DNA of 64,000 nt from Nannocystis bainbridge (GTDB lineage Bacteria > Myxococcota_A > Polyangia > Nannocystales > Nannocystaceae), in NCBI RefSeq assembly GCF_028368995.1, contig NZ_JAQNDL010000001.1, positions 1,760,001 to 1,824,000 on the forward strand. The letters run 5' to 3'. Positions within the stretch are counted from its first letter, which is position 1, and every line of letters starts with the position of its first letter. Both the position numbers and the translations under genes were made by a program. Below, piece by piece: positions 9,961 through 17,860 of this stretch. The notes below the pieces were generated by a model that saw nothing but the letters and a program-made list of their open reading frames with translations, was not told the DNA's origin and did no database searches.

Positions 9961-10767
9961 TCATTCCCGCCACCAGATCGGCTCGACGTGCGGCGCATCG
10001 CCGAGCAGCACCGCCCCCGGGTCTGCTTCGCCGAACAGCGCCCCCAGCTGCGACGAGTACGCGCGCACCGCCGCACTCGCGCGCGGGTCGGGCTCGGCGA
10101 ACACCTGCACCTCGCGGCGCAGCCCCAGGCGCGGCTGCGTCGGCGCCGACAGCATCGCCGCCAGCGGGGCCAGGCACGCCTCGCGCTCGCTCGCCGGCAG
10201 GTACGCCCGCATGAACGCGCTCACACGCGCCGACGCCAGGAACTCCTCCGCCGGCGCGGGCGCCACCGGCTCGCCGTCGACCGCCGCGCCGATCTGCCGC
10301 AGCCGGGCCCGCACCGCGTGGCGCACCAGCGCGTACGGGCGGTCCTCATAAAAACCGACGCGCCCCGCCATCCCCACGTGCGCCGCGTGGACCGCCCGGT
10401 GATCGACGTGCTCGCCGACCCCGAGCGGCAACAGCACCGTCTCCGGTCGCACGCGCATCACCACCGCCGCGATCACCCGCGCCACCTCGGCTGCATCGGC
10501 CGCCTCGACCTCGCCGAGCACCAGCGCGCGGAAGCTCCGCGGCACGCCCAGGCGCTCGGGCGCGTCGCGCAGGCCCACATGCAAAAACTCCGCGCCGAGC
10601 AGCGACGTCGCCGCGACGTCCTCGGCCCGCCGCGTCGCGTGGTCCGCGTCGCCCTCGCTGAACACCGTCGCCACGATCACCCGCTCGCTCCGGGCCCGCG
10701 CCGCCAACCACGCCGGCAAGGAAAGCACCGCGTCGTCGAGGTGCGGCGAGATCACCAACGCCGTCAC
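9961..10767 (-). CDS. PIG-L/LmbE family deacetylase
   Basis: VISPHLDDAVLS, RRAED, GEHVDH, FYEDRPY and AYSSQ motifs; GAGGAG RBS before the GTG at 10767. Confidence 0.9.
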   Translation of the reverse strand: MTALVISPHLDDAVLSLPAWLAARARSERVIVATVFSEGDADHATRRAEDVAATSLLGAEFLHVGLRDAPERLGVPRSFRALVLGEVEAADAAEVARVIAAVVMRVRPETVLLPLGVGEHVDHRAVHAAHVGMAGRVGFYEDRPYALVRHAVRARLRQIGAAVDGEPVAPAPAEEFLASARVSAFMRAYLPASEREACLAPLAAMLSAPTQPRLGLRREVQVFAEPDPRASAAVRAYSSQLGALFGEADPGAVLLGDAPHVEPIWWRE

Positions 10768-10849
10768 GGATCGCTCCTCGGCCGCGCCGCACCGAATGTC
10801 ATCACGGTCTCGTTTCGCGGTGCCACGATTCGCACTCTCCGCTCGACGC

Positions 10850-11055
10850 CTCACCGATTCGCATCACCCGGCCATCGACGCGCGGCGCCTCGATTCGCAC
10901 CATCACCCGGTCAGTGACGCGCGGCGCCTTGAGCCCCGTCACGCGGTCAGCGACGCGCGGCGCCTCGAGCACCATCACCCCGTCAGCGACGCGCGGCGCC
11001 TTGAGCACCATCACCCCGTCAGCGACGCGCGCTACCTCGACTCGCAAGATCACGC
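10850..11055. repeat. Tandem repeat array, about 36-bp unit, 5-6 copies, intergenic inside the biosynthetic cluster
   Basis: GACGCGCGGCGCCT(C/T)GAGCACCATCACCC(C/G)GTCAGC-like units start at 10877, 10916, 10952, 10988 and 11024 (spacings 39, 36, 36, 36); no unique spacers. Confidence 0.85.
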
Positions 11056-15702: not shown

Positions 15703-16643
15703 GACACGATCAACCCGGGAAAGCGCCGCGACAGCAGCGCGAGCGTGGTCCAGCCGACGCGCCCGCGATCGCTCGAGAGGTCGGGCTCGCGGCCGAGCGC
15801 CTGCGCCAGGGCGGCGACCCGCGGGCCGTCCCACAGCGGCGACAGATCGATCGGCGGGGCGAAGCGCGGCTGCTTGGGCCGGCGCGCGATCGCCTCGGGG
15901 ACCCCGAGTTCGACCGCCAGGCGCCGCAGCGCGTGCTTGTGCGGATCCTCGGCGACGTGGCGCGCGACCGCCTCGGCGAGGAACGGCGCGCCCGGCTCGA
16001 GCCCGGCCGCGCGAGCCAGGGCGCCGACGATCGGCAGGTAATCGGCGCCCGAGGTGCCGCGGAACACCTCGTCGGCGCCGTCGCCGGTGACGAGCACGTC
16101 GTGGCCGTCGGCGCGCACGGCCCGCGCCAGCAGCCACCGACTGACCGGGTGCAGGTTGTAGAGCGGAGCCTCGCAGGCCGCGATCACCTGCGGCAGCGCC
16201 TCCACGTAATCCGCCGCGGTCACACGAATCACCCGCAAGGGCAGCCCCAGGGCCCCGGCGACCGCGCGCGCCTCGGCCTCCTCGCTGTATCCGGGCAGCT
16301 CGGGCGCCAATGTGTAGACCGTCGCACGCGCCCCGAGCAGGCCCGCGAGCGCGGCCGAGTCGACGCCGCCGCTCAGCGCCAGCGCGACCCGCCCCGCCGG
16401 CAACGCATCGAGGGCGCCAGCGAGCAGCGAATGCAGCGATCCGGGCGGGCCGCGGTGATGCACCCCGCGCAGCCACGGCGGCAGCACCAGGCGCGCGCCG
16501 GCGATGCAGGTCGAGCCGTCGGCCGTGACCTCGCCGAACGCCGCTCGCACGCCGTGCGCATCGAGGCTCACCGCGGCGCCGCCGACCAGGCCGACCAGCG
16601 ACGCTCCCCGCCGGCCCCGCCATTCATAGCAGTGCGCCGTCAT
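15690..16643 (-). CDS. AsnB synthetase-domain-only protein (ATP-dependent amide ligase-like)
   Basis: LSGGVDS, TGDGADEVF, PFL, K..LR and RRPK motifs; no N-terminal Cys-Gly-Ile glutaminase domain. Start overlaps the radical SAM stop (ATGA). Confidence 0.85.
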   Translation of the reverse strand: MTAHCYEWRGRRGASLVGLVGGAAVSLDAHGVRAAFGEVTADGSTCIAGARLVLPPWLRGVHHRGPPGSLHSLLAGALDALPAGRVALALSGGVDSAALAGLLGARATVYTLAPELPGYSEEAEARAVAGALGLPLRVIRVTAADYVEALPQVIAACEAPLYNLHPVSRWLLARAVRADGHDVLVTGDGADEVFRGTSGADYLPIVGALARAAGLEPGAPFLAEAVARHVAEDPHKHALRRLAVELGVPEAIARRPKQPRFAPPIDLSPLWDGPRVAALAQALGREPDLSSDRGRVGWTTLALLSRRFPGLIVSCAA

Positions 16644-17860
16644 GCCCGGGGCACGCGCAGCGGGTGCAGCCGGCCGGCGCGCACGTCCGCCCCCGAGAGC
16701 TGGGAGTGCGCGGCGACCGGGCCGTCGCCACCGTGGCAGAAGCGGCACGAGACCAGCGGCTCGACCCGGTTGAGGTACGCCAGCAGCGCGGCGCCGAGGT
16801 CGGGCGCATCGAGCGGCACACCATCCCCGGCGCGCGCGGCCTCGCGGTCGTCCGGGTGGGCGCCGTGGGCGATGTCGCGGTGGAACTCCTCGGCGTAGGC
16901 GGCCCGCGTGCACATGTAGAACTTGCCGCGGCGGACCACCAGGCAGCGGTGACGCAGCCAGCAGCGCTCGTAGGTCGCGCGCAGGGCGGCGTCGTCGTGC
17001 TCGCGCTCGGCCCGCATCACCTCGCTGAACTCGCCGACCGGCTTGACGTTGAGCACCACGTCGAACGCCCGCGCCTTCTCCCGCGCCGCCGCCAGGTGGG
17101 CCGGCCGCACCGGCGCGCTGGCGTAGTGCGAGATCGTCAGCTCGTCGAGCGCCTCCCAGAACCCGTCGTCCATGGCGTGCAGCCGCAGGCCGTTGGTGAA
17201 CAGGCGCACCGTGTCGCTGATCCCGCTGCGCCGGATCGCGTGCAGCACCCCGGTGATGTCCGGGTGCAGCAGCGGCTCGCCGCCCATGATCTTGAACACG
17301 TCGACCTGCAGCTGCGCCGCCATCGTCCGGCATATCGCCTCGATGTCGGCGACCGACTGCGTGTGCTCGCCGAGGTACGGCGACATGTTGCAGCAGTGGG
17401 CGCAGCGCAGGTTGCAGTGCTCGACGACGTGCAGCTCGAACGCCTCGACGCGGATCTTGCCGTCGCTGCGCGCGTAGAGCTTGCGCTGCGAGGTCGGCCG
17501 CTCGCCGCGGCGGACGAAGGAGGCGCGGGCGCGGGCCCGGCCGTCGCGCGGGCGCACGTGCACGGCTGTCTCTTTGGCCAGGCGCCGCCGCAACCACCGC
17601 TCGAGCCGCGGGCCGTCGTCGTCGGCGACCGCGGCCTCGACCGCGAGCAGGTCCTCGACCCGGTAGGCCCCGGCGACGCCGTGGGCCGTCAGCTCGGCTT
17701 GCGAGGTGGCGTGGCGCAGCGCGGCGAGCAGCCGCTCGAGCGCCAGCTCGCCGCGATCCTCGACTTCGACCTGCACGTCGAGCCGGTCGCCGCCCGCGTC
17801 GCCGCGAGTCACCGCGACCTCGATCGCCACGCCGTCATGGTTCGTCGACCAGCCGGTCAT
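16640..17860 (-). CDS. Radical SAM protein with an N-terminal extra domain and C-terminal Cys cluster (Twitch/SPASM-like)
   Basis: HCNLRCAHC (CX3CX2C), MGGEPLLHP, FTNG; C-terminal CWLRHRC...GKFYMC...CRFC. Confidence 0.93.
   Translation of the reverse strand: MTGWSTNHDGVAIEVAVTRGDAGGDRLDVQVEVEDRGELALERLLAALRHATSQAELTAHGVAGAYRVEDLLAVEAAVADDDGPRLERWLRRRLAKETAVHVRPRDGRARARASFVRRGERPTSQRKLYARSDGKIRVEAFELHVVEHCNLRCAHCCNMSPYLGEHTQSVADIEAICRTMAAQLQVDVFKIMGGEPLLHPDITGVLHAIRRSGISDTVRLFTNGLRLHAMDDGFWEALDELTISHYASAPVRPAHLAAAREKARAFDVVLNVKPVGEFSEVMRAEREHDDAALRATYERCWLRHRCLVVRRGKFYMCTRAAYAEEFHRDIAHGAHPDDREAARAGDGVPLDAPDLGAALLAYLNRVEPLVSCRFCHGGDGPVAAHSQLSGADVRAGRLHPLRVPRA

Follow-up and report, generated by a model that had tools for sequence, protein, structure and literature searches.

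The DNA analysed here, referred to as the window, is a 64,000-nucleotide stretch of the Nannocystis bainbridge genome (assembly GCF_028368995.1, contig NZ_JAQNDL010000001.1, positions 1,760,001 to 1,824,000) with a G+C content of about 74%. Between positions 9961 and 17860 it carries seven co-directional open reading frames (ORFs) on the minus strand, each of which translates without an internal stop at the coordinates in Table 1. In order of transcription these encode a radical S-adenosylmethionine (SAM) enzyme, a PP-loop protein related to AsnB, a full AsnB-type amidotransferase, a GT1 glycosyltransferase, a GT2 glycosyltransferase, a ROK-like protein, and a PIG-L-family deacetylase. None of the seven proteins has a hydrophobic span, and the chemistry is hence expected to be cytoplasmic.

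Five junctions between neighbouring genes are overlaps, ranging from 4 to 31 nt. The radical SAM and PP-loop genes share an ATGA at 16640–16643, as do the AsnB and GT1 genes at 13957–13960; the PP-loop and AsnB genes overlap by 13 nt (15690–15702), with the GTG start of AsnB opening the sequence M-C-G-I-A-G; and overlaps of 13 nt (12788–12800) and 31 nt (11838–11868) join GT1 to GT2 and GT2 to the ROK-like gene, respectively. Motif inspection suggests that the catalytic equipment is intact in the radical SAM, AsnB, PP-loop, GT2, and PIG-L proteins. The seven genes most likely constitute a self-contained, translationally coupled operon of soluble enzymes, as predicted from their arrangement.

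A preliminary description of this DNA had listed the same seven genes and overlap coordinates, all of which the translations confirm. It had also reported that no polyketide synthase (PKS), nonribosomal peptide synthetase (NRPS), transporter, regulator, or precursor peptide was present, with which Pfam searches, BLAST comparison of the flanks, and a comparison of small upstream ORFs agree. It further held that the set matches none of the pathways it named, butirosin and moenomycin among them. None of the seven proteins reaches a specific NCBIfam cut-off, the sole match above threshold being AsnB to the generic asparagine synthase model. The six proteins other than the radical SAM enzyme have no match in PADLOC. 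Full-text literature searches found no paper on this combination of genes, and the comparison with known systems did not extend to MIBiG.

Table 1. Genes of the predicted operon, in order of transcription, and the repeat array within it (positions in the window)
Feature	Coordinates	Strand	Details
Radical SAM enzyme, two domains	16640..17860	-	406 aa; Pfam Radical_SAM 41.3 bits
PP-loop AsnB-like protein, without glutaminase domain	15690..16643	-	317 aa; SGGVDS; Pfam Asn_synthase 92.3 bits
Full glutamine-dependent AsnB-type amidotransferase	13957..15702	-	581 aa; GATase_7/6 and Asn_synthase 188 bits
GT1 (GT-B), MGT/UDPGT/EryCIII type	12788..13960	-	390 aa; EryCIII-like_C 68.6 bits, UDPGT 58.1 bits
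GT2 (GT-A), soluble	11838..12800	-	320 aa; Glycos_transf_2 30 bits
ROK-like ASKHA protein	11104..11868	-	254 aa; Pfam-negative; TIGR00744 sub-threshold
36-nt tandem repeat array	10862..11053		Between the ROK-like and PIG-L genes; Tandem Repeats Finder
PIG-L/LmbE-family N-deacetylase	9961..10767	-	268 aa from GTG 10767; PIG-L 52.4 bits (cut-off 28.2)

Conservation and variation of the gene set

Few genomes carry an orthologue of the radical SAM enzyme. There are strong matches in three of 40 relatives, including two of the ten other genomes of the genus, and only two of 400 sampled genomes of the phylum contain one at E ≤ 1e-40. A scan of species-representative genomes added three loci (Byssovorax, Polyangiaceae, and Planctomycetota metagenome-assembled genomes, MAGs), and a metagenome scan yielded 48 loci, 27 of them at 48% identity or above. 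Gene content could be judged at 17 loci, comprising the window, nine genome loci (L011–L016, L019, L020, and L025), and seven metagenome loci (L027, L033, L035, L039, L040, L043, and L047). On the other 20 metagenome contigs, which are too short for such a judgement, the visible parts follow one of the observed orders.

All seven genes are present in identical order at ten of the 17 loci (the window, L011, L012, L013, L015, L016, L019, L027, L039, and L043). One of these complete loci belongs to a Planctomycetota MAG, and the remainder include several soil myxobacteria; at L013, an insertion of 7.3 kb of unrelated genes separates the radical SAM gene from the second gene. From the gene orders compared, recurrence on this scale is more than chance. 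The seven remaining loci are variants. L014 retains only the first five genes, and L033 and L040 possess six, without PIG-L. At L020, a radical SAM gene lacking the N-terminal domain is followed by the PP-loop, AsnB, and GT1 genes and then by a gene for an APH-family phosphotransferase; at L025, a divergently oriented radical SAM gene precedes those for the PP-loop, GT1, ROK-like, and PIG-L proteins. L047 carries two tandem radical SAM genes and four others, and L035 has six rearranged genes, with a CTP_transf_like gene at the usual PP-loop position. Across the 17 loci, the radical SAM and GT1 genes are each found 17 times, the PP-loop and AsnB genes 16 times each, GT2 15 times, the ROK-like gene 14 times, and PIG-L 12 times. 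Judged by these counts, the constant core is the radical SAM enzyme with GT1, nearly always accompanied by the PP-loop protein and AsnB, and the GT2/ROK-like pair and PIG-L are add-ons.

Nothing comparable unites the surroundings. All-against-all BLAST of flanking ORFs, at seven loci and then at 37 loci (1423 ORFs), found nothing shared except generic two-component genes: histidine kinases at six loci, another kinase-like group at four, and response regulators at three. Such genes are very common in these genomes, and their recurrence is therefore read as chance. In the neighbourhoods examined, the set has no recurring PKS, NRPS, or terpene gene next to it. Upstream of the radical SAM gene, ORFs of at least 25 aa within 700–900 nt have nothing in common among seven loci, and tblastx of the upstream gaps links near-identical lineages only. 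Synteny, on which the preliminary description had made its interpretation depend, thus extends across Myxococcota and to one Planctomycetota MAG, with unrelated flanks. Its suggestion that the convergent amidase (8519–9940) might be functionally linked has to be abandoned, as no homologue was found at any of the nine other genome loci or of the 35 metagenome loci screened.

Two of the variants carry an enzyme from outside the usual seven. The APH-family gene at L020 (4402–5442, minus strand) lies after GT1 and is a single instance, in a variant without GT2, ROK-like, and PIG-L genes; APH-family kinases are common in aminoglycoside clusters. The CTP_transf_like gene at L035 (4730–5701, plus strand) encodes a HIGH-type nucleotidyltransferase fold without sequence similarity to the PP-loop gene, and may be a non-orthologous replacement of the adenylating step.

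The radical SAM enzyme

The first protein has two domains: residues 1–122 resemble RidA, YjgF, and chorismatases, and the stretch from about residue 129 to 399 is a radical SAM core of the twitch kind seen in SpeY and HygY. Its closest named homologue, annotated Nannocystis exedens, is 88% identical. Among PDB sequences, phmmer recovers 7wzv (E 1.7e-35), and an AlphaFold model built from 29 homologues (predicted local distance difference test, pLDDT, 88.2) superposes with VIA-align on the same entry, 'Twitch Radical SAM Dehydrogenase SpeY', with Z 29.3 and a root-mean-square deviation (rmsd) of 2.0 over 259 aligned positions in residues 129–399, at 32% identity. BtrN follows the three SpeY entries at Z 13.1, its PDB entry title giving 2-DOIA as substrate, and the remaining radical SAM enzymes score about 10–11. 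The preliminary description had cited the dehydrogenase BtrN of butirosin as a precedent. The enzyme does belong to the sugar-acting twitch group, and BtrN ranks second, but SpeY is the closer relative and an invariant cysteine, described below, points to an epimerase. In spectinomycin biosynthesis, SpeY oxidises a sugar carbinol as the dioxane bridge is formed, and its homologue HygY epimerises a sugar carbon (C2'') in hygromycin B.

The CX3CX2C motif is present, and its cysteines (C149, C153, and C156) are invariant in the 29 homologues and aligned with those of SpeY. Four further invariant cysteines, C300, C317, C372, and C375, each align with a cysteine of 7wzv and, judging from this alignment, are the expected ligands of an auxiliary [4Fe-4S] cluster in the C-terminal twitch domain. 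A fifth, C306, is also invariant and lies opposite the serine at sequence index 203 of SpeY, which corresponds to residue ~183 once a 20-residue tag offset is subtracted; we take this to be the position of the hydrogen-donor Cys183 of HygY. The equivalent of C306 is also kept in the L020 paralogue and in the second paralogue of L047. In work on HygY and SpeY, a cysteine at the hydrogen-donor position is reported to mark an epimerase and a serine or alanine a dehydrogenase, and loss or mutation of a single cysteine in HygY reportedly converts the epimerase into a dehydrogenase. NeoN, too, employs a cysteine, Cys249, as hydrogen donor (PMC10991966). Because the invariant Cys306 sits where SpeY has a serine, an epimerase is favoured over a dehydrogenase, and epimerase chemistry is considered somewhat likelier than dehydrogenation from the sequence.

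The N-terminal domain superposes on the chorismatase 5ag3 with Z 11.1 (rmsd 2.8, 113 aligned) and on RidA/YjgF proteins with Z 9.4–10; R49, R67, E69, D70, and R92 are invariant in the same homologues. RidA and chorismatase sites bind carboxylates, and by analogy the domain gives a hint, no more, of a substrate carrying a carboxylate.

Further forms of the enzyme are found elsewhere. P0070, a protein of 509 aa that is 58% identical to the radical SAM enzyme, carries a further chorismatase domain at its N terminus (FkbO_Hyg5-like_N, scoring above the Pfam threshold). At L047 (11131–11886), L048, and L049, the radical SAM gene is directly followed by another, shorter paralogue of 36–39% identity; it lacks the N-terminal domain and keeps the Cys306 equivalent. 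Prokaryotic viperin (PADLOC pVip) was considered as an identity for the window enzyme and rejected, as the match (45.7 bits) covers profile positions 3–99 of 257 only and reflects the generic radical SAM core.

The amidotransferase pair, GT1, and PIG-L

AsnB exceeds the threshold of TIGR01536 (340.4 bits; cut-off 267.1) and possesses both the nucleophile cysteine of the N-terminal (M)CGIAG and an SGGLDS motif. Its closest solved relative over residues 1–565 is 7ylz, a 'hydroxyamidotransferase' (E 1.4e-51) that is presumably TsnB9 of trichostatin biosynthesis. The PP-loop protein matches only positions 19–136 of the Asn_synthase profile, lacks a GATase domain, and has NCBIfam matches far below cut-off. 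A recent origin as a copy of the AsnB synthetase domain was rejected by sequence comparison. GT1 falls below the cut-off of TIGR01426 (159 bits; cut-off 260), and its closest solved relatives are OleI/OleD, Kcn28, YjiC, and the CalG enzymes.

The PIG-L protein contains SPHLDDA (H-L-D-D) and HVDH motifs in its translation, where the metal and base motifs of PIG-L/LmbE enzymes follow the rule HxDD ... HxxH. Its closest solved relatives are the teicoplanin/A40926 pseudoaglycone deacetylases Orf2*/Dbv21, at E ~1e-7 across about 37 residues of the N-terminal metal-motif region, and it scores 21 bits with the BshB1 model (cut-off 182.5). Homologues align to the ORF only from residue ~27–32; the start is therefore probably GTG 10767, giving 268 aa, and not 10854.

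GT2 and the ROK-like protein

GT2 contains a DxD motif, D88-A-D90, that is invariant in 17 orthologues. It has no NCBIfam match and no PDB match by sequence, and ESM Atlas searches with GT2 and the PP-loop protein returned generic family names only.

The product of the sixth gene is more unusual. It has no Pfam match at E ≤ 0.01, and its match to TIGR00744 (E 0.004) amounts to 16.3 bits against a cut-off of 260; members of its family reach at most 19.4 bits with Pfam ROK, where the cut-off is 22.9. An exhaustive HMMER search places 262 representative clusters in the protein's own family at E ≤ 0.001. Among the 150 clusters listed, full-length matches are mostly about 240–300 aa and shorter ones cover part of the query, with matches ending at, or within two residues of, the query C terminus. 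In the AlphaFold model (pLDDT 96.1), residues 107–254 lie on the N-lobe of ROK kinases (Z ~10, 133 residues, 17–24% identity) and residues 1–105 form a second small lobe of the protein's own; the whole protein superposes on type III pantothenate kinases and other ASKHA proteins with Z 8.4–9.5. A phosphate-1-like DxGQ (D114-x-G116-Q), an NDAE (N219-D220), and a GxGxG-like element (G244/G248) are recognisable, with D114, G116, Q117, K121, and D220 invariant and N219, G244, and G248 nearly so. The ROK C-lobe, with its zinc and adenosine motifs, is absent: profile matches stop at ~141 of 294 positions, and structural matches cover kinase chain residues ~1–160. From sequence and model, the sixth gene is assigned to a separate family of ~255 aa with only the ROK N-lobe. 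The label 'ROK-like kinase', which the preliminary description had used, is thus too strong for a protein that lacks the ROK C-domain and falls below every curated threshold. Truncation of the gene by repeat insertion was rejected, since orthologues in array-free loci end at the same residue.

In P0242, a 549-aa protein of the representative library, an orthologous GT2 (36% identical to that of the window, E 2e-68) is naturally fused to a ROK-like domain, which argues that the adjacent GT2 and ROK-like genes are functionally tied. A complex prediction for the two proteins scored 0.00, which speaks neither for nor against a complex. The amino-acid composition of P0242 suggests a low-G+C organism, and the module would therefore reach beyond Myxococcota.

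The repeat array and neighbouring genes

The array consists of 4.6 copies of a 36-nt unit at 10862–11031 (87% matches), and a 72-nt reading extends it to 11053. With the PIG-L start at 10767, the array is intergenic and lies inside a 336-nt gap; at L011 and L012, neither a gap nor an array separates the ROK-like gene from PIG-L, the two being directly adjacent or overlapping. The unit is not dispersed elsewhere in the genome, the array has no Rfam match, its fold is no more stable than those of shuffled sequences (z +1.93), and promoter-like and terminator-like sites are not in excess. From this comparison of loci, the array is judged to be a strain-specific intergenic insert.

Directly upstream of the set, across a 136-bp gap, lie genes for a bacteriophytochrome histidine kinase with a receiver (17997–20666) and a heme oxygenase (20674–21234), both on the minus strand. 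The set could be read through from this light-sensing operon in this strain, an arrangement not seen in the other loci. The bacteriophytochrome has no counterpart beside the set elsewhere, with generic kinase-core matches in a few loci only. In two separate lineages (L026, 394–2919, and L047, 5614–7995), an OmpR-type response regulator and a HAMP(-PAS) histidine kinase lie upstream on the same strand as the set; the pair is absent from L011, L012, and Nannocystis-like genomes. Further away in the window, plus-strand genes at 21441–23589 encode a PAAR-motif protein with an Ntox46 toxin domain and then a DUF4123/Tsi6-like protein (assigned by Pfam only), which together look like a type VI secretion effector and its immunity or adaptor partner. 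On the minus strand, positions 243–7662 encode a 2200-aa protein with Pkinase, AAA_16, GAF, HisKA, HATPase, receiver, and Hpt domains, followed by a receiver-DUF4388 gene.

A proposed pathway and its alternatives

The favoured explanation, held with moderate confidence, is that the operon makes a small glycoside in the cytoplasm, starting from nucleotide sugars and an acceptor that is a common primary metabolite and probably bears a carboxylate. Enzyme families suggest that the product class would be an amidated, N-deacetylated amino-sugar glycoside. We infer all substrates, the order of steps, and the product; gene content, domains, catalytic motifs, synteny, and the lack of conserved neighbours are observed directly. 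The nearest solved relatives of AsnB, GT1, and PIG-L are all natural-product tailoring enzymes, and both BtrN and SpeY act on carbinol centres of amino sugars or cyclitols.

In the proposed scheme, one Leloir glycosyltransferase would attach an N-acetylhexosamine and the other a second sugar, and the UDPGT-type GT1 may add a uronic acid. PIG-L would then take off the N-acetyl group and expose the amine. The full AsnB would convert a carboxylate to a carboxamide via glutamine-derived ammonia and an acyl-adenylate, and the PP-loop enzyme would adenylate a second carboxylate and join it to some amine that is not free ammonia, perhaps the sugar amine just exposed. After glycosylation, the radical SAM enzyme would take hydrogen from one sugar carbinol carbon; most likely Cys306 would return a hydrogen and so invert the centre, the other outcome being oxidation to a ketone. 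The ROK-like protein would work with GT2, as an acceptor-binding subunit or a minimal kinase.

Several points weigh against this explanation. Every chemical step rests on family membership, and the assignment as an epimerase hinges on Cys183 being the hydrogen donor of HygY. AsnB lies above the NCBIfam equivalog cut-off for ordinary asparagine synthase, and a housekeeping role is hence possible. The set is also modular, with PIG-L missing beside it at five of the 17 loci, the ROK-like gene at three, GT2 at two, and AsnB at one; the seven steps are therefore not an obligate chain. Lastly, the usual acceptors of GT1 enzymes in this family are hydrophobic aglycones that other genes produce, a preference that fits a tailoring cassette equally well or better.

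Such a cassette, considered unlikely, would decorate a hydrophobic scaffold encoded elsewhere, such as a polyketide, terpenoid or sterol, carotenoid, or peptide aglycone: N-acetylglucosamine (GlcNAc) would be added and deacetylated as in teicoplanin-type pathways, a second sugar added, and a carboxylate amidated. The solved relatives of three enzymes are in its favour, those of GT1 acting on macrolides, enediynes, and other aglycones, those of PIG-L being glycopeptide pseudoaglycone deacetylases, and that of AsnB a natural-product hydroxyamidotransferase, and the set itself holds no scaffold gene. Neighbourhoods are, however, unrelated in every lineage examined, with no recurring PKS, NRPS, or terpene gene, and one distant scaffold common to Nannocystis-like, Polyangiaceae, and Planctomycetota genomes would be needed. 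A route resembling those to mycothiol and bacillithiol seems less probable still. GlcNAc would be placed on a primary-metabolite acceptor and deacetylated by PIG-L, and a PP-loop ligase of the HUP class would acylate the amine with an amino acid, the product being a protective cofactor or compatible solute and not an antibiotic. In its favour, the set contains the three enzymes required (a glycosyltransferase, PIG-L, and an ATP-dependent ligase), every protein is soluble, and no export gene is conserved; moreover, L035 exchanges the PP-loop gene for a HIGH-type nucleotidyltransferase-fold gene, this fold being that of the superfamily to which the mycothiol ligase MshC belongs. This route is opposed by the BshB1 score far beneath its threshold, by glycosyltransferases of GT1 and GT2 with no GT4 of the MshA/BshA type, and by the absence of PIG-L beside the set at nearly a third of the loci. 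The rarity of the set (radical SAM orthologues in three of 40 relatives and two of 400 phylum genomes) is also unlike a core redox buffer.

Two other readings are poorly supported. Modification of envelope glycans or glycolipids, through uronamide formation in O-antigen or exopolysaccharide and exposure of glucosamine, would accord with the occurrence of GT2 and PIG-L families in envelope pathways, and AsnB-type amidotransferases amidate uronic acids in some O-antigens; it is nevertheless very improbable for seven proteins without a membrane span, beside which no flippase, polymerase, chain-length, or export gene recurs, and whose radical SAM member has its only close characterised relative in an aminoglycoside pathway. 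Maturation of a ribosomally synthesised and post-translationally modified peptide (RiPP) is more improbable again. It would have the radical SAM and AsnB-like proteins modify or cyclise a ribosomal peptide in the manner of lasso cyclases before the glycosyltransferases act on it. Radical SAM enzymes are common RiPP maturases, and AsnB homologues include lasso cyclases, but the match of AsnB to NF033535 (184.5 bits) is far under the cut-off of 525, its glutaminase domain is intact, and the set contains no peptidase. The radical SAM enzyme is SpeY-like, with SPASM peptide maturases reaching only Z ~10–11, and the upstream comparisons yielded neither a small ORF conserved among the seven loci nor a coding sequence linking lineages.

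The small cytoplasmic glycoside is retained as the preferred product. Of the interpretation first offered for this DNA, the real, conserved, and self-contained unit survives; the amidase link fails, the ROK kinase label is too strong, and dehydrogenation of the BtrN type looks the less likely chemistry.

Relation to known systems and significance

SpeY (7WZV) is the nearest point of comparison, sharing the fold, the CX3CX2C motif, and the four auxiliary cysteines; the enzyme studied here differs in its extra 122-residue N-terminal domain and in having Cys for Ser at ~183. Unlike the SpeY and HygY pathways, the set lacks cyclitol and deoxythymidine diphosphate (dTDP)-sugar genes, and it occurs in Myxococcota, not Streptomyces. 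The BtrN and BtrD pair of butirosin similarly brings together a PIG-L-type deacetylase and a twitch radical SAM enzyme whose target is a carbinol centre, but identity to BtrN is only 12%. Neither a 2-deoxy-scyllo-inosose synthase nor a pyridoxal phosphate (PLP)-dependent aminotransferase is found in the set or in the scanned flanks (window, L011, L012, L013, L014, L020, and L035).

In moenomycin biosynthesis, MoeF5 and MoeH5 are full and glutaminase-defective AsnB-like amidotransferases that act on uronic acid carboxylates. In gene content, they resemble the present pair in placing a glutamine-dependent AsnB and a glutaminase-less partner near glycosyltransferases; the set differs in lacking prenyltransferase and phosphoglycerate-lipid genes, and its short paralogue lacks the whole N-terminal domain. 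Teicoplanin-type systems pair a GT1 of the EryCIII/Gtf type with a PIG-L-family deacetylase (Orf2*/Dbv21); here, the PIG-L match is weak, and there is no NRPS or acyltransferase. The AsnB shares the full-length architecture of the hydroxyamidotransferase 7YLZ, from which it differs in also passing the generic asparagine synthase cut-off. The ROK-like protein has in common with ROK sugar kinases (PF00480) the superposed N-lobe and the phosphate motifs, but stops where the C-lobe would start and has an N-terminal lobe of ~100 residues of its own. Judged by the NCBIfam, PADLOC, and literature searches, the set appears to be a new variant among saccharide-type biosynthetic clusters.

Rule-based genome mining largely overlooks saccharide-type clusters that lack a PKS, NRPS, or cyclitol synthase, and myxobacteria have already proved their worth as a source of new antibiotics. 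If the product is a minor decoration of a known metabolite, the interest would be local only. The unit is compact, with seven genes found across two phyla and no membrane protein, and is small enough for a heterologous host. For enzymology, it offers a radical SAM enzyme of the SpeY/HygY type with a fused RidA-like domain and a testable prediction, Cys versus Ser, of epimerase or dehydrogenase, together with an unannotated family of ~255-aa proteins (262 representative clusters) that has the ROK N-lobe only.

A broader proposal is put forward tentatively, as a speculative possibility. The operon may represent a new, scaffold-less class of amide-bearing amino-glycosides of Myxococcota and some Planctomycetota, aminoglycoside-like or mycothiol-like in nature and lying outside the actinomycetes and bacilli. 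Two features would mark this class: a sugar epimerase of the radical SAM type, joined in one protein to a carboxylate-binding domain of the RidA/chorismatase type, and a new half-ROK family that partners GT2.

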